Shown here piece after piece: positions 1 to 7,802 of a DNA stretch of 21,765 bases. Origin of the DNA: Planctomycetota bacterium. Lineage in GTDB: Bacteria > Planctomycetota > GCA-002687715 > DRQF01. The position numbers and the translations under genes are program-made. The DNA lies in NCBI GenBank assembly GCA_027001995.1, contig JALTLO010000156.1, positions 1 through 21,765 on the forward strand, read 5' to 3'. The first letter of the stretch is position 1. Each line of letters opens with the position of its first letter. The notes beneath the pieces were generated by a model. It was not told the DNA's origin. It saw only the letters and a program-made list of their open reading frames with translations, and did not search any database.

Positions 1-842
1 AGTACAACGCCAATCCAACTTGGAAAGAACGCTATAACCGCGACAAGGATCGCGGCGAACCAGAGCATGACTATCTGGAAACGACCATTTCTGGCGCGAG
101 TAGCGCAAGCCGCATCAGGAGCGCAAGAACGATTTTTGAAGTATGTTATGTAAAACGCGAATCCCAGTAAGACCGAGGCAGCTCCAAGAAACCAGGGTCT
201 GACCGATTCGAAGGCTGCGGACACCCCAGCTGCGGACATGCCAAATGCAACCAGCAGCAGTGGAAGCCAACAGCAGGCGGACGCCACAATGGCGGCAAGA
301 AGCGAACCACCGGCCGCCCAAAGCCCCCTAGGGCGTTCCTGGCCTGATTCGGTTGCCATATCGGCAAAAACCGCATGTCCCGCAACTGAACAACAGTCGT
401 CATCCTCGGAGATGGCCGCCACGTCTACGGTGCCCATTGCCTTTTCGGTCGCTTTCCGAATGTCGCTGAGGCAGCATTTCCCCTTGGGGTTCTTGAGCTC
501 ACAGGCACAATTACCTGCGGCAACTTCAGCTTTGATCGAAGAGAATGCCGTACTGACGCCGGTGCGTTCAATCTCCTCGCGAATACTCTCCTCGGAGTGA
601 CCAAAGCAGTAGCAGACCGTGTGCGGGGGGGCCTCGACCTTGGCTCCGATTCGCACGGTGACGTCGTCCTGTCCGACGGTCGTTCCGGCACTGGAAAAGT
701 AGGCCACAGAGCAGCCGGGTTTGGAGCAGAATGCCCAGGATTCCTCGTCGGTTGGCGACCGTTCTGGACAGACGAGCGCCTTCAGGGTTGCGACGCCGAC
801 TTTTTGGCCAGTCGTCTTGCAGTCAGGGCACTTGGATTTCAT
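1..842 (-). CDS. Fusion of a CopZ-N-terminal-like Zn/[2Fe-2S] (BFD-like) domain and a MerT-family mercuric transporter domain; 3' end outside the window
   Basis: Translated by hand; absent from the ORF track because its stop lies outside the window. ATG at 842 follows GGAGG. Reads MKSKCPDCKTTG...WAFCSKPGCSVAYF...TVCYCFGH...NCACELKNPKGKCCLSDI, a linker DDDCCS, then in the same frame without a stop MATES...LLAAIVASACCWLPLLLVAFG...VRPWFLG...GFAFYITYFKNRSCAPDAAC...MLWFAAILVAVIAFFPSW (MerT TM1 CC pair plus the loop Cys pair). Confidence 0.88.
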   Translation of the reverse strand, partial: MKSKCPDCKTTGQKVGVATLKALVCPERSPTDEESWAFCSKPGCSVAYFSSAGTTVGQDDVTVRIGAKVEAPPHTVCYCFGHSEESIREEIERTGVSTAFSSIKAEVAAGNCACELKNPKGKCCLSDIRKATEKAMGTVDVAAISEDDDCCSVAGHAVFADMATESGQERPRGLWAAGGSLLAAIVASACCWLPLLLVAFGMSAAGVSAAFESVRPWFLGAASVLLGFAFYITYFKNRSCAPDAACATRARNGRFQIVMLWFAAILVAVIAFFPSWIGVV

Positions 843-885
843 AGCGTCCTCCGGTTCGAGACCCGATGCCTCCAACTACTTGAAC

Positions 886-2452: not shown

Positions 2453-3784
2453 TCAGCCGTCATGAAGGAGTAAAGATTTGACCTCTTTGATCCATGGGGG
2501 AATCATGACTAATGTCGAAGGGTGGTTCTTTTCTCTTGATTGATCTTCCAAGTAAGCAAGCCACAGAGGTAGAAACTCCTCCCATTGTGGCAAGGGGTGA
2601 ATACTGAAGGATGTCATAGCCCTCAGGGGTTGAAACCCAACATACAAGTAAGAAGAACAACCGAAAACAGCAAAGATGAGTTCTGGGCGGCGGTGAACAG
2701 GAACGGAAGCAAAGGCAGCCAACGCAAGCTCGGTGGTGGCTCGGGCCAGATCGTAGGTGAGAACTTCACTCAGGCATTCGTAGTTACCTTCGACCTGCAA
2801 GACATCGTTGATCATGGCGGGCAACAAACCACTCAGAATATGCAGGGCCAAGCCGTCATTATCGCGCAACAGAGTGGCCGATGCGAAACGCAAGATCTCA
2901 TCCACTTCTTGGGGTTGAAACCGCGCCCCTTTTTCCACTTTCTTAAAGAACTCGACCACTGCTTCTTGTTCGGAATCCAAGACCGGAGGCAGCTCCCAGT
3001 CCGGGCATTTCTTGCGCCCACAAAACACCACTGTGTCTCGAAGCAGGTCATAACCCGCCAAGTCGAATTTTGGATTGACGATCAAATCTCGACAAAGCTG
3101 ACGAAAGTCGTCGGCATCAAGGCGAGAGAGAGCCTGATCAAAAACCTCCAACCCATCGGTTGTGTGGCGGAATCGACTTGTTTGACCGGGAGCCAGTCCG
3201 AATTCCTGGGCTAGCAGATTGTTGTCGTCAGCAACAACAGTGTTTGCGAATTCGCTGATATCGAAGGCTTCTGGGTGCCAATCGCCCAGCCACTCCCCTA
3301 AGCTTTCCTCTTCTCCCCAAGGGTCTACCCCGGTCTTGGCAAAGGTGGACACCCTCTCGTAACCGCCATAACCGCCACAATCCTCCGGCGGAAAACTCCT
3401 GGCACCGTCGACCAAAATCATTTTCGCGTCGCCATCATGTTTTGTTCGACCTACAAGTTTGACCTTATGCTCCCAGCCATCGCCGAAATCATAGAGATAA
3501 CGACAAGTACTACCTTTTCGTTTGAAGTAGTCTTTAACCAAAATGGTCGTGGCATCAGGGCAATCTAGATCATAGTCATCATTGGGCACTCCAGCGATTT
3601 CTTGATTCTTGTTGTTCAGAAACCCCCACAAATGACAGTCCAACCACCCACAGGCCTGAATCGCTTGGTGCAAATCATAGAATGTGGAAGTTTCAGGGAT
3701 CTCAAACTGGCGATAGATGGGCGGGAAGATGTTCTCGATATCAACCCGAAACTCTAAGTATTTCAATTTTTCAAACTCCGGCAT
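2453..3784 (-). CDS. Plasmid pRiA4b ORF3-like family protein with C-terminal extension
   Basis: Family motifs PPIYRQFEIP..TFYDLHQAIQ..GW.DCHLWGF, YLYDFGDGWEHKV and GARSFPPEDCGGYGGY in the N-terminal ~180 aa; the C-terminal half is not recognised. Confidence 0.85.
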   Translation of the reverse strand: MPEFEKLKYLEFRVDIENIFPPIYRQFEIPETSTFYDLHQAIQACGWLDCHLWGFLNNKNQEIAGVPNDDYDLDCPDATTILVKDYFKRKGSTCRYLYDFGDGWEHKVKLVGRTKHDGDAKMILVDGARSFPPEDCGGYGGYERVSTFAKTGVDPWGEEESLGEWLGDWHPEAFDISEFANTVVADDNNLLAQEFGLAPGQTSRFRHTTDGLEVFDQALSRLDADDFRQLCRDLIVNPKFDLAGYDLLRDTVVFCGRKKCPDWELPPVLDSEQEAVVEFFKKVEKGARFQPQEVDEILRFASATLLRDNDGLALHILSGLLPAMINDVLQVEGNYECLSEVLTYDLARATTELALAAFASVPVHRRPELIFAVFGCSSYLYVGFQPLRAMTSFSIHPLPQWEEFLPLWLAYLEDQSREKNHPSTLVMIPPWIKEVKSLLLHDG

Positions 3785-4472
3785 CAAGAGTCATGAAGAA
3801 GAAGCAAGGTGCACAATATTCGTTTCTTTCGAACAGCGGTGGCCCCTAGCAGAAGCAGGTGTTTGGTGAAAATACGGACACACACGGTGTCGCAAACAAA
3901 ATTACCAAAGATCATGATTCTGAACAATTCGTTGTAGCACGCCCCGTGGAGTCTGATAGGATTGGCAAGCTAAATCGAGGGTTGATGTCTATCCCTCTAT
4001 GTCTGAGGTCCATCTGGCTGGAATCTATCCTTAAGATTCATGGCATCCTACAGTAATCAACACACCTGCACAGAATCCCCAGCCCCCATGAGACAAGACA
4101 ACCAAATCCCTTGTTGATCACGAGCTGGTTCCCCCAGATTGAATCCAGGCAAGCCCACTCTTAGAACCTTTATTCCGCAACAGCTTGCGACCCGAGTGAT
4201 TCTTCGTGTCCAGGCCATTTTTTCGCCAATGCTTCCTGTTCTTTGAGTCAGTCCCATCTTCATCAATATTCTTTCTCCGAAGCTCAATGGGCTGCGTGTC
4301 CCTGATCTTCGAATCCAGTTTTTTCTCTCGTCTTTTCAACGCTTACCGCCTAGCCCGAAGACTTCACGATCTTTCCAAGCCCACTGGCCATGTTTTACTT
4401 TGAAAAGAGGTCTTAAGAATCGTTGTTCCGAGCTTTCTTTGTGAGGCATTCTCTCGCACTACGCCCACGATC

Positions 4473-5003
4473 TCATGAATTCGTCGGCTTAGGAACCAAA
4501 GCAGGCGGCGATTGGGAATAGTCGACAATGGCATCGAAGGCCTTATTTTCCAGGATGGATTCGCTGCTGCCCATCCACGGATAGTAGAAAGGAGCGTTAT
4601 CGATCCTAAGGTGAAGCACACCATTGCGGGTTTCCAAAATACCAGTTGCTCTAATTGACATGGTTCCAGGCTTAAATCCGGCATCTTTGATCGCAATTGG
4701 CACTTTCGCGAGGTTGAGAGGGACGTTCTCTGAGGGCGTCACAAAGGCCAAGTTTTCTTGCAAATCGATGCGTACATGTTTGACGCCATCCAGGCGTCGA
4801 AGGGCGTCAGCGACACCCTTGGCTCATGGAGTTCACTCCATCCCCAGCGCTTGCACCTTAATGGCCATGAGACCGGACTTAATAGCGACTTGAGATTGTC
4901 GATTACCTTCCCTCGAAGAGGATTCCGACGGCGCTTTGTTCGAGGATGCGCAACTGATCAGTGCGAACAAGAGAAAAGCGCTTGATACCAACAATGTCTT
5001 CAT
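4473..5003 (-). CDS. HMA (MerP/CopZ-like) domain lipoprotein with two in-frame UGA codons at the CxxC positions; candidate UxxU selenoprotein, 176 aa
   Basis: AGGAGG, ATG 5003, signal peptide and lipobox MKTLLVSSAFLLFALISC. Continues IKVQALGME-TGA(4833-4835)-T-P-TGA(4824-4826)-AKGVADALRRLDGVKHVRIDLQENLAFV...IAIKDAGFKP, a complete HMA pattern. Joins track ORFs 4833..5054 and 4473..4763 in one frame. Confidence 0.85.
4782..4820 (-). other. Two tandem candidate bacterial SECIS hairpins
   Basis: mRNA AAGGGUGUC-GCU-GACGCCCUU (4800-4820; 9-bp stem, loop 21 nt after UGA1) and GACGCC-UGGAU-GGCGUC (4782-4798; 6-bp stem, loop 31 nt after UGA2). Both loops have a G in the first two positions. Confidence 0.55.
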
Positions 5004-5017
5004 GAAAATCGTGCCTC

Positions 5018-5947
5018 CTAAAAGATAAACTTCACACCCAAAGTTGCGCCCCATTGGCGGCGTCCGAAAGGATCGTCAATATTCTGGAAGATTGGAACCT
5101 GGATAGAGGCCTCAATCAACACGTCTCGATTCAAGTATATTTGGACACCGGGAGCAGCCCAGACTTCGAAGCCACCGTCGTCCAAACCACCTCGGCTGCC
5201 GATACTTTCGGAGCGATACGTTGAGAGGAGTTCGAAAACACCTCGCACCTCAACCTCTTGTTCTTCTGGATCAAAAGTAGCGGGAGTGATTCGATACCAA
5301 TACGCCAAGTTGAGATGGAAGGAATCACCAAGTCGAAAACCCTCATGGCGCGTTCGATGTCGATAGAACACCTCAGCGGAAAAGCGATGACGGTCACGGA
5401 TAATAGTAAAAGCGCTCCCTACGCCGACACCCCATCCGCCCGATCCAAGCTGGAGCTTCCGTGGCAACTCGACACCGGCTTCTCGCTCACGATGTCTGCC
5501 GGTCGGCGCGACGCCCTCAACCATCACCGCCCAACGCGTTGACTCAAGGACACCGTCTTCTTGAAACAGAGAATATTTCAATCTTAGCTCAAGGTCGCCA
5601 AGTCCAAATAGGGAATCACTCTCATCGAGGCCAGATGGTGTCTTGAATTCCAAATCTCGGTAGAGAGTTGGAACCGTAAGTCGAGTCTCCAAAGTTGGAG
5701 TTGGGCTGTAAACGAATTGGAGCAAAGATCGAACTTCTTTGACATGAGCAAATGACCGATAGGACAAAAGCTCAATCAATGTCGGTAGCTCAGGCGAATT
5801 GACGCCGGCATTGGCGGTGAGAATCTGCCCACTTGTTGCAGGTGCAAGTAGCAAGAAGGAAATAGCGAGAACCAAGTGAAAACGGATACCAATTCGGCCT
5901 CTATTCTGATGTGCCCAACCACTGTTTGGACTTGATGTTTCAGACAT
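5018..5947 (-). CDS. Putative outer-membrane beta-barrel transporter (MetA-pathway/SphA-like family)
   Basis: Signal peptide, GLGDLELRLKY, PTG...LQLGSGGW, amphipathic beta-strands, APGVQ, and a C-terminal aromatic residue (GVKFIF); RBS AGAGGA. Confidence 0.8.
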   Translation of the reverse strand: MSETSSPNSGWAHQNRGRIGIRFHLVLAISFLLLAPATSGQILTANAGVNSPELPTLIELLSYRSFAHVKEVRSLLQFVYSPTPTLETRLTVPTLYRDLEFKTPSGLDESDSLFGLGDLELRLKYSLFQEDGVLESTRWAVMVEGVAPTGRHREREAGVELPRKLQLGSGGWGVGVGSAFTIIRDRHRFSAEVFYRHRTRHEGFRLGDSFHLNLAYWYRITPATFDPEEQEVEVRGVFELLSTYRSESIGSRGGLDDGGFEVWAAPGVQIYLNRDVLIEASIQVPIFQNIDDPFGRRQWGATLGVKFIF

Positions 5948-6186: not shown

Positions 6187-6588
6187 TCATTCATCATCCA
6201 TTGCCTCCAGAATGGAGCATTCACCTATCGGACCGTCATCAACGCATCGTTCGACCAAAGAAGCCAGTGCTCGTCGAATAGCGCGCAGTGAACGAATTTT
6301 CTCATCGACGTCGGCAATCTTGCCTTCAGCTCGCCGCCGGACGTCAGAGCATTTGGCGTTCTCCTTGGCGCGTAAATCAAGAAGGTCGCGGATCTCACGT
6401 AGTGTAAAGCCAAGCTCCTGCCCGCGTTTGATAAAACCGATTCTCTGAACATAGTGCTCCGGATACTGGCGGTAATTTGATGAACTTCTCGGCGGCTTCG
6501 GAATGAGCTTGATCTTCTCGTAGTAGCGCAGTGTTTCAGGATTGATCCTGCACCGGCGAGACAGCTGCGCTCTTGTTAGTCCATTCAT
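6187..6588 (-). CDS. MerR-family heavy-metal-responsive transcriptional regulator
   Basis: LTRAQLSRRCRINPETLRYYEKIKLIPKPPRSSSNYRQY, FIKRGQELGFTLREIRDLL; Cys triad KCSDV / RCVDDGPIGECSIL. Confidence 0.95.
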   Translation of the reverse strand: MNGLTRAQLSRRCRINPETLRYYEKIKLIPKPPRSSSNYRQYPEHYVQRIGFIKRGQELGFTLREIRDLLDLRAKENAKCSDVRRRAEGKIADVDEKIRSLRAIRRALASLVERCVDDGPIGECSILEAMDDE

Positions 6589-6608: not shown

Positions 6609-6640
6609 ATCTTAAACCCTGTAGTTAGGTACAAGGTCAA
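6609..6640 (-). promoter_or_regulatory. MerR-type sigma70 promoter with 20-bp spacer and operator dyad
   Basis: Minus strand TTGACC-ttgtacctaactacagggtt(20)-TAAGAT; dyad ACCTTGTA-n6-TACAGGGT, resembling CadR/PbrR/MerR-type operators. Confidence 0.85.
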
Positions 6641-6758
6641 GGGAAATCAAGGTCATAGCATTTCGGGTAGTTCATTTTCCCGATTTTCACAACGATGCCG
6701 CGGGATGTAGACCGTGAGACTCGACATTGGATCAAGTCTCACGGATCTTGGGCACATG

Positions 6759-7802
6759 CTATCGGCCTCGGCCTCGTCGGAAGTGATTGTCACTGTTGGC
6801 AGCCAACTCGAGCCTTCCCAACATTCGTTTAACTTCGGCATTCTTCGGATCAAGAGCTCGGGCTTCCAAGGCGACTTTGCGTGAATTCTTGAGAGATCCA
6901 CGATAGAAAAACTCGGATGCGAGATAGAGTTGGGTTTCCACCGCGTCATCCGTCATGGACTTAAGGTAAGAATCAATCAATGCCCCCATGGGTGAATTCG
7001 ATTTATTCTCCGCCTTGAGCTTGATGAGCTCTTTGCGGCCTTTTTCGAATTCAACAATCGCGCGTCGAAAATCTTTGATGGCTTGGCTATGCCTCTTGGT
7101 GTTTTTAAGGGCTTTACGTTTGAGCTCGTGAGCCTTGGAATAGTGTTTCCTTCCATGAGCAAGACGTTTCATTGCCCTTTCATCTGCTCTCCTTGAGACC
7201 TTAGCCGCCCGATCTTCTGTTTTCTTCTTTCGAACCGTCATGGCTCGATCGGCAATGTCGTCCAAGAGTATGCGCGCTTGAGCGGCGAATTCTGTGAATG
7301 GATATTTCTCAAGCAACATCCCCAAATGGCGCTCGGCTTTCAGTATTTTTCCCGCCGCGATTTGCTCCCGAGACCAAGTAAGCATTCTTTCGCCAACTCG
7401 ATGTTCCAACGCCTTAAGTTCAATTTCAATCTTGCTGCCCAAACTGGTATCTGCCTTCTGGGCCAAACGAAAATGCCGACGGGACAATTCAAAGAGATCG
7501 TGATCCAAGGCGTAGGAGGCAATCTTCAGTTGCCCTTTGGCGTCATTAACTTGCGTCCGCGACTTCATCAGTCGATAGATGGTCCGGGGATGAAGCTCTG
7601 CGTAGGAATAGGTGACAATCTTCTTGTCCTTGAATCGGCGAACCTTGATCTTTCGCCCGTCATCGCTCAGCAAAGTACAGGTTTGAGCTTTACCGCTCCT
7701 CAACAAAATGGTGTGTGGGGCCTGCTGCAGATCAGAGGCAGAAAACGCCATCGTGTAGAATGTGAGACTAAAGACTAACGTGAGTGTCGTCTTGGAAATC
7801 AT
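6759..7802 (-). CDS. Hypothetical secreted, basic, alpha-helical (TPR-like) protein
   Basis: 347-aa ORF with signal peptide and TPR-like segments (EARALDPKNAEV); RBS GGAGG; ATGA overlap with the upstream gene. Confidence 0.75.
   Translation of the reverse strand: MISKTTLTLVFSLTFYTMAFSASDLQQAPHTILLRSGKAQTCTLLSDDGRKIKVRRFKDKKIVTYSYAELHPRTIYRLMKSRTQVNDAKGQLKIASYALDHDLFELSRRHFRLAQKADTSLGSKIEIELKALEHRVGERMLTWSREQIAAGKILKAERHLGMLLEKYPFTEFAAQARILLDDIADRAMTVRKKKTEDRAAKVSRRADERAMKRLAHGRKHYSKAHELKRKALKNTKRHSQAIKDFRRAIVEFEKGRKELIKLKAENKSNSPMGALIDSYLKSMTDDAVETQLYLASEFFYRGSLKNSRKVALEARALDPKNAEVKRMLGRLELAANSDNHFRRGRGR

Follow-up and report, generated by a model that had tools for sequence, protein, structure and literature searches.

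How does bacterial SelB serve two UGA codons that lie 9 nucleotides (nt) apart? The question is posed by a family of predicted HMA-domain lipoproteins, one of which is encoded in the 21,765-nt stretch of Planctomycetota DNA analysed here (contig JALTLO010000156.1 of assembly GCA_027001995.1; hereafter the window), from an apparent hydrothermal-vent metagenome. Its gene occupies 5003..4473 on the minus strand and has UGA at both Cys positions of the metal-binding motif GMxCxxC. We conclude, with a probability of roughly 0.88, that this is a genuine double-selenocysteine HMA lipoprotein gene, in which selenocysteine (Sec, U) would occupy both ligand positions (UxxU). If so, an envelope-anchored protein resembling MerP carries two selenols at its metal site within a conserved regulator-barrel-lipoprotein module, and gene callers fragment a whole family of such UxxU HMA lipoproteins.

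One reading frame interrupted by two UGA codons

The gene and the elements that define its reading frame are as follows.

4473..5003, minus strand: predicted selenoprotein gene, HMA-domain lipoprotein with a UxxU metal site (176 codons plus TGA stop)
4833..4835, minus strand: UGA codon 57 (UGA1), first Cys position of GMxCxxC (invariant alignment column)
4824..4826, minus strand: UGA codon 60 (UGA2), second Cys position of GMxCxxC (invariant alignment column)
5014..5019, minus strand: ribosome-binding site AGGAGG, 10 nt before the ATG (from the sequence)

The first-pass annotation of this locus, which did not name the strand, had joined two broken open reading frames (ORFs) into one, had placed the interrupting TGAs on both HMA cysteines, had described the ribosome-binding site and lipobox as intact, and had expected standard annotation to split the gene. 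All of this holds. The frame 5003..4473 is open except for TGA at codons 57 and 60; read with TGA as U it gives 176 residues, which start MKTLLVSSAFLLFALISC and later run VQALGMEUTPUAKGVADALRRLDGV. Codon 177 is a TGA too, and is the gene's own terminator, a point absent from that annotation. With U read as C, the Pfam HMA model (PF00403) matches residues 54-111 at 35.1 bits against a cut-off of 24.8. The AGGAGG stands at 5019-5014, where it shares sequence with the TAG stop of the barrel gene before it; the lipobox L-I-S-C is encoded by codons 15-18, and gene calling does split 5003..4473. Neither a start codon nor a ribosome-binding site follows directly after UGA2.

Both TGAs are also present in independently assembled sequence data, with 0 differences across 4300-5654 in a Logan contig of run X1 (depth 9.5). 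This is the sole run with nearly the whole stretch; it is labelled hydrothermal vent metagenome and is possibly the window's own source sample, and runs X2-X4 stop short of the TGA sites. No RNA data set was listed as containing the locus.

Immediately 3' of the gene, and reaching into its final codons and TGA stop, is a dispersed repeat of about 90 nt (4399-4493). The window's own genome contains 28 matches to this repeat at 73-100% identity, metagenome contigs accumulate and end at it, and the C-terminal residues of the lipoprotein diverge from those of the same-genus homologue from about this repeat onward.

Conservation of the UGA pair

The UGA pair recurs widely within the phylum. We fetched 30 homologous loci and read the HMA-site motif in each, finding UxxU in 20, a single U in 4 (CPIU, UAVC, CLFU and CNLU) and CxxC in 6, and the 20 UxxU loci span at least 12 family labels within Planctomycetota. 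Since 20 of the 30 loci, all from other genomes, carry both TGAs, chance or sequencing error is excluded, and the earlier argument that two independent nonsense mutations were unlikely to have struck just these codons is borne out. When 61 relatives were searched with the read-through protein, matches were found in 12, four of them with 2 TGA; these four include a genome of the same genus (50% identity, GMEUTPU) and a distant genome (42%, GLEUMPU). When a profile was run against 401 genomes of the phylum, at least 26 genomes among the matches listed (150 of 263) had two in-frame TGAs, and 2 further UxxU genes (GIEURPU) lie in named Planctomycetota metagenome-assembled genomes (MAGs). The five closest named records with the barrel-lipoprotein pair, found with a 4-row alignment of the barrel protein, are likewise all Planctomycetota MAGs.

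In an 18-row alignment whose members share 15-50% identity with the window's protein, Cys18, U57, U60, Gly73, Gly109 and Gly121 are invariant, and conservation spans both sides of the UGAs. The CxxC relatives have Cys aligned with both UGAs, and some relatives are mixed (CxxU or UxxC), such that all four kinds of homologue are represented with conserved flanks. The relatives form two motif groups, G[ML]EUxPUxK, to which the window's protein belongs, and GGVTUPxU. Searches of public protein sets are less informative. A word-index search of 5.8 billion proteins, run once for the read-through protein and once for residues 61-176, found neither full-length nor fragmentary relatives, which says little because the method requires shared 5-residue words. 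A profile search of 1.84 billion representatives gave 35,451 matches at E <=0.001, dominated by multi-HMA proteins; an architecture resembling an HMA domain followed by a beta domain is seen in only three among the 150 matches listed (P0083, P0143 and P0151), all CxxC, and Cys-form proteins with an HMA domain, a beta domain and a second HMA domain are also present in such sets.

One relative, from genome G047 (L023:721-1863, minus strand), has four in-frame TGAs and would hold four Sec. Its protein runs from a lipoprotein signal through an HMA domain (GGITUPMU), a beta domain and a second HMA domain (GATUMAU) to a thioredoxin domain (WCAPC).

Selenocysteine machinery and genetic code

The genome assembly (5.22 Mb in 204 contigs, 92% complete) contains the machinery for which the first-pass annotation had proposed to look, namely selA (510.9 bits), selB (334.3 bits) and selD (357.2 bits), each above its cut-off, and tRNA-Sec, at 68.2 bits against a cut-off of 47 and with anticodon UCA according to ARAGORN. 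The genes for SelA, SelD and tRNA-Sec are clustered at C148:21750-24413 and selB is on another contig (C17). There is one in-frame TGA within selD, and SelD would therefore itself be a selenoprotein. TGA terminates 6 of the 10 Pfam-supported ORFs of the window. A global reassignment of TGA was considered and rejected, given this use of the codon as a terminator both there and in the selenoprotein gene itself.

Two conserved hairpins after the UGA codons

Directly downstream of the UGA pair, the RNA can form two hairpins that are candidates for the selenocysteine insertion sequence (SECIS).

4800..4820, minus strand: hairpin H1, candidate SECIS for UGA1 (9 bp, loop GCU, -12.2 kcal/mol)
4782..4798, minus strand: hairpin H2, candidate SECIS for UGA2 (6 bp, loop UGGAU, -11.6 kcal/mol)

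In the window, the loop of H1 lies 21 nt past UGA1 and 12 nt past UGA2, and that of H2 31 nt past UGA2 and 40 nt past UGA1. In an ungapped alignment of 17 UxxU genes, covering 76 nt from 6 nt before UGA1, RNAalifold predicts H1 and H2 unaided. Within a 14-pair structure 94.1% of cells pair, as compared with 31-47% in controls whose pairing partners were shifted by 1-3 columns; compensatory change is seen in 7 of the 14 pairs, and double-sided changes number 22 cells against 6.1 in shuffles, none of which (0/500) reaches 22. Two held-out genes form 14/14 pairs each, and the hairpins are missing from eight Cys-only relatives, which fit 3, 3, 4, 4, 5, 6, 6 and 9 of the 14. The pair 26/38 joins the second bases of codons 63 and 67, which encode Gly63/Ala67 in 9 genes (GC) and Ala63/Gly67 in 5 (CG); from this swap it follows that the RNA stem constrains the protein sequence. 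A 6-bp hairpin enclosing UGA1 in the window was also considered and was dropped, as it is not conserved among homologues.

Published limits for bacterial SECIS (bSECIS) elements are a 3-9 nt loop with G in the first two loop positions, a UGA-loop distance of 16-37 nt and a minimum free energy of <= -7.5 kcal/mol (PMC13188914). Among the 17 homologues, H1 lies 18-21 nt from UGA1 (inside these limits) and 9-12 nt from UGA2 (outside), with an energy of <= -7.5 kcal/mol in 16 of them, and H2 lies 31-32 nt from UGA2 (inside) and 40-41 nt from UGA1 (outside), with the G rule satisfied in 17/17 and energies of -9.1 to -12.1 kcal/mol. In the window, H1 as the element for UGA1 and H2 as that for UGA2 both satisfy the limits. 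Because each UGA has exactly one hairpin within the permitted distance, the arrangement suggests a tandem SECIS, one putative SelB-binding hairpin per UGA, and we put this forward tentatively, at somewhat less than even odds.

Several observations weigh against a tandem SECIS. H1 meets the loop G rule in 10 of the 17 homologues only. The CxxU relatives L036 and L052, which have no UGA1, fit 11 of the 14 pairs of the fixed structure, and a third, L051, fits 7 of 14 with hairpins visible at both positions in its fold; H1 is therefore not tied to UGA1, being kept in relatives that lack that codon. The G047 relative has, at its second UxxU site, one hairpin (loop GGA), 32 and 23 nt from the UGAs and thus in range of both, so that two hairpins are no general requirement. 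An Rfam scan of 4700-4900 found no SECIS family and gave only a chance-level match to a small RNA (E 4.6), which counts against our main conclusion. It might be that H2 alone serves both UGAs. If the tandem SECIS is real, it would represent a dedicated RNA solution for two Sec codons 9 nt apart. The existence of UxxU, CxxU, UxxC and CxxC relatives, together with two separable hairpins, provides a clean natural system for the question of how SelB operates here, and a 2026 hydrogenase paper raises the same question (PMC13582414).

Alternatives to selenocysteine at the UGA codons

Taken with the machinery, the conserved TGAs and a code in which TGA still terminates, the covarying hairpins leave Sec at both UGAs strongly supported, and the first-pass description of the gene as a probably recoded UxxU protein stands. 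The same annotation had offered Cys insertion as an alternative, and one or both UGAs could in principle be read as Cys or as another standard residue, by a SECIS-dependent route of the tRNA(ReC) type or by near-cognate suppression. According to the 2026 hydrogenase study, UXXU genomes are enriched in tRNA(ReC)-like tRNAs and either UGA might be Cys (PMC13582414), and a genome that is only 92% complete leaves room for a missing tRNA. However, ARAGORN identifies 43 tRNAs in the whole assembly, of which one has a UCA anticodon, the tRNA-Sec beside selA and selD, and one is a normal 72-nt tRNA-Cys(GCA); nine sub-threshold matches to the tRNA-Sec model are ordinary Ser, Gly, Tyr, Leu and His tRNAs, and TGA is a common terminator in the window. 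The Cys alternative thus finds no support in this genome, and we consider it very improbable. Less credible still is a pseudogene, or a gene that yields a 56-residue lipopeptide only, its downstream part untranslated. The splitting of the frame by standard gene calling and the empty word-index searches would fit such an explanation, which we regard as barely tenable in view of the homologues at 15-50% identity that carry both TGAs, the conserved and open frame past them, the single confident HMA fold of the whole, the covarying hairpins just downstream and the lack of a start codon or ribosome-binding site directly after UGA2.

Two further points nevertheless count against our conclusion. The UxxU HMA proteins, including that of the window, are known by computation alone, which bears on the selenium itself. 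Furthermore, although the window's protein carries UxxU at its HMA metal site, it scores 23.9 bits against a cut-off of 95 for NF041115, the established model for such domains, and four relatives tested reach 16.5-33.7; the best score in its own genome is 38.6 bits, and no member above the cut-off was found there.

Architecture of the lipoprotein

The main parts of the predicted protein are as follows.

4950..5003, minus strand: signal peptide ending in lipobox LISC, with Cys18 the predicted lipidated residue (sequence, codons 15-18)
4650..4871, minus strand: HMA domain, residues 45-118, ferredoxin-like beta-alpha-beta-beta-alpha-beta (AlphaFold pLDDT 94-98)
4476..4649, minus strand: C-terminal all-beta extension, residues 119-176, family-specific (strands predicted, pLDDT 79-98)

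The lipobox consensus is [LVI][ASTVI][GAS]C. The L-I-S-C of the window's protein conforms to it, its Cys is invariant in 18/18 aligned homologues, and lgt and lspA occur in the genome at 214.8 and 91 bits, each exceeding its cut-off. Export, lipidation at Cys18 and anchoring in the periplasm are accordingly predicted from the sequence. Because the +2 residue is Ala, an outer-membrane location is suggested, provided that the sorting rules of E. coli apply.

The 18-row alignment was used to build an AlphaFold model, which has a mean predicted local distance difference test (pLDDT) score of 86 and a predicted template modelling (TM) score, pTM, of 0.73, with residues 1-40 forming a low-confidence tether and residues 41-140 at pLDDT 94-98. 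The best Foldseek match is oxidised MerP (1osd_A; TM 0.83 on target, root-mean-square deviation (rmsd) 2.0, 25% identity), and VIA-align to 4a48_A gives Z 11.6 and rmsd 1.4 over 66 residues. The domain is therefore assigned to the HMA family by its PF00403 score above cut-off together with its beta-alpha-beta-beta-alpha-beta fold, in which the ligand pair sits at the loop and start of helix 1. The extension of about 58 residues continues the last HMA strand and is conserved among homologues, with Gly121 invariant. No solved counterpart of this extension was matched in fold searches, which hit the HMA part only and barely tested the extension.

A conserved regulator-barrel-lipoprotein module

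Upstream of the lipoprotein gene lie a barrel gene, a regulator gene and a candidate promoter, and a further metal-related gene lies at the end of the contig.

5018..5947, minus strand: outer-membrane beta-barrel gene, 309 aa, Phenol_MetA_deg (PF13557, E 2.8e-7)
6187..6588, minus strand: MerR-family regulator gene, 133 aa, with Cys80, Cys115 and Cys124 (Pfam MerR-DNA-bind, MerR_1, MerR)
6609..6640, minus strand: MerR-type promoter/operator upstream of the regulator gene (TTGACC, 20-nt spacer, TAAGAT)
3..875, minus strand: gene for a CopZ-N-terminal-like domain fused to a MerT domain, possibly associated (cut by the contig end)

The order regulator-barrel-lipoprotein is a conserved module. Using tblastn, we found a barrel homologue in 22 of the 28 loci tested, including 17 of the 20 UxxU loci, where it is always on the same strand and ends 5-96 nt before the lipoprotein start; the three UxxU loci without a match include L045, which has no upstream sequence. 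The barrel gene is probably co-translated with the selenoprotein gene. Genes resembling merR also flank the barrel-lipoprotein pair in L040, L041, L059, L063, L077 and L078. Among 9 homologues at 36-71% identity, the barrel protein has invariant Arg/His-rich stretches (RDRHRFS and RHRTRHEGFR), which could line a pore or bind ions.

When the regulator was compared with 15 NCBIfam families, the best was TIGR02051 MerR at 118.2 bits. Its closest solved relative is 4ua1_A (E 6.1e-30), followed at a distance by CadR (1.7e-19) and CueR (3.7e-15), and Cys80, Cys115 and Cys124 face Cys in 4ua1_A in a gap-free alignment. We take 4ua1 to be an Hg-binding MerR and its three aligned Cys to be the Hg ligands. 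An over-long promoter spacer is the hallmark of MerR-family promoters, and the 20-nt spacer upstream of the regulator gene contains the dyad ACCTTGTA-N6-TACAGGGT (7-of-8). In L078, from a Planctomycetota MAG, a merR-like gene is likewise preceded by TTGACC, 20 nt with the dyad CCTTAGAG...CTCGAAGG, and TAGACT; its dyad arms differ from those of the window, yet are again complementary. The region between merR and the barrel gene holds no inverted repeat, and no match was found to a minus-strand sigma-70 promoter with a 16-18 nt spacer.

The gene at 3..875, which lies 3.6 kb downstream of the selenoprotein gene, scores 115.7 bits against a cut-off of 100 for NF047645 and also matches Pfam MerT; its visible part has Cys, not Sec. 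MerT-domain genes occur near the pair in 4 loci, namely the window and L056, L061 and L078, where the homologues adjoin it. Contig C188 of the same genome starts inside an HMA domain (GMHCEAC; C188:4-192, L072) and could continue this gene. Between it and the selenoprotein operon stands a gene (2453-3787, minus strand) whose 444-residue product contains a plasmid pRiA4b ORF-3-like domain (E 6.3e-38), a stretch that may be an insertion, because a same-genus relative has a different downstream gene. On the other side of the operon, a 13-nt inverted repeat (6712-6744; 92% complementary, arms 7 nt apart) sits between a TPR-protein gene (6759-7802, minus strand) and the MerR-type promoter, and is probably the terminator of that upstream gene.

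Proposed mechanism and the identity of the metal

Based upon these features we propose a model in which a soft metal, most likely Hg(II), would activate the MerR-type promoter, and the operon would yield the outer-membrane barrel and the lipoprotein, SelB with Sec-tRNA(Sec) decoding both UGAs with the aid of H1 and H2. The lipid-anchored protein would then bind a soft thiophilic metal through its two selenolates in the periplasm, beside the barrel with which it would work, and would probably either hand the metal to the MerT-domain inner-membrane transporter, or compete for it with that transporter, or else retain it. No MerA was found, and the end point may therefore be sequestration or transfer, not reduction. 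The genomic context appears to favour a mercury-type soft metal, and from it we infer a metallochaperone role and Hg(II) binding. Whether the metal of the diselenolate site is mercury itself we judge to be an even call, with Cu(I), Ag(I) or Cd(II) as possible alternatives. Weighing against mercury are that the metal is assigned by context, that the regulator's 118.2 bits fall below the MerR equivalog cut-off of 150.85 and so outside TIGR02051, that the protein itself scores 28.2 bits against a cut-off of 92.55 for MerP (TIGR02052), and that MerA above cut-off is absent from the 92%-complete genome, where the best score is 312.3 against 454.45 bits.

The main competitor to mercury is that the double selenoprotein binds Cu(I)/Ag(I) or Cd(II)/Zn(II), as part of a defence against copper or cadmium in the periplasm. 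Among NCBIfam models, those for CopZ give the HMA domain its highest scores (35.1, 33.1 and 32.5 bits), the regulator also matches ZntR, CadR and CueR models at 100-107 bits, and the missing MerA fits this explanation as well; set against it, both the best family of the regulator (MerR) and its best solved relative (4ua1, with three Cys aligned gap-free) are of the mercury type, the top Foldseek match is MerP, and the recurring neighbour is a MerT-domain transporter. Because all the supporting scores lie below equivalog cut-offs, this alternative keeps a real share of the probability, unlikely as we hold it to be. A different kind of function would arise if the UxxU of a true double selenoprotein were a redox-active diselenide, as in a periplasmic oxidoreductase or a selenium/chalcogen handler. 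Reviews list UxxU in redox families too (Prx-like), and in the G047 relative a thioredoxin domain is joined to two UxxU HMA domains; that thioredoxin could just as well hold the selenols in reduced form for binding metal. Since the fold and motif position are typical of a metal-binding HMA domain most similar to MerP, a MerR regulator of the metal-sensor type, with an Hg-binding Cys triad, stands at the head of the operon, and MerT-domain genes recur nearby, a redox role seems improbable. The fullest version of our own model joins the tandem SECIS to a reductase-independent mercury or soft-metal pathway of Planctomycetota, in which selenium captures metal at the cell envelope. This combination is distinctly unlikely to hold in its entirety; if true, the parts of the pathway would be a MerR-type sensor, a barrel, a diselenolate lipoprotein and a MerT-domain transporter, with no MerA.

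Comparison with known systems

The first-pass annotation had left it undecided whether this family had been described. An HMA domain with Sec, even in the UxxU form, is already known by computation, from NCBIfam NF041115 and from selenoprotein reviews, a 2022 review included. The lipoprotein family and its neighbourhood, however, are uncatalogued: the family has its own architecture, partner genes and two-hairpin element, and the window's protein fails every family-level cut-off. The open-access literature, in its accessible portions, does not describe a lipoprotein UxxU HMA family, a barrel partner or such selenoproteins of Planctomycetota. Likewise, 'Planctomycet' and 'lipoprotein' have 0 occurrences each in the available text of a 2026 review, and 'mercuric reductase' is not present in that of the main text of Zhang & Gladyshev 2007. 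With its clear regulator, promoter and partner genes, the window's protein is readily testable among UxxU HMA proteins.

The nearest catalogued relative is NF041115 (UxxU_metal_bind, metal-binding (seleno)protein), a computational prediction of the same HMA-type domain with Sec at both ligand positions. That model describes a 74-residue single domain, to which the window's protein adds a lipoprotein signal, a linker, the beta extension of about 58 residues and a barrel partner gene. NF045683, the 'MerT/CopZ fusion-like heavy metal transport selenoprotein', resembles the present system in that a selenoprotein combines MerT-type transport and an HMA/CopZ domain; the window has one gene for its HMA selenoprotein and another for its MerT-domain protein, and the selenoprotein scores 21.0 bits against a cut-off of 375. 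The CopZ/Atx1 copper chaperones (NF047957, NF033795 and NF033794) share the fold and motif position, but the scores of 32.5-35.1 bits are far under the cut-offs of 85-95, and those proteins are cytoplasmic, Cys-based and single-domain. The likeness to MerP (TIGR02052; 1osd, 1afi) lies in an exported HMA domain with a GMxCxxC-type site and in a MerR-like regulator and MerT-domain gene nearby. Unlike the soluble MerP, the window's protein would be lipid-anchored, with two Sec, an extra C-terminal domain and a barrel partner, in a genome with no MerA. A selenoprotein 'Mercuric transport protein MerP' is listed in the GOS survey (PMC2398784). Finally, the UXXU-type Group 4 [NiFeSe] hydrogenases, as described in the 2026 study, are unrelated in protein and likewise have two UGAs two codons apart at a metal-ligand CxxC, posing the same question of how SelB and SECIS serve both; the authors propose one shared SECIS (PMC13582414), whereas here two covarying hairpins follow the UGA pair.

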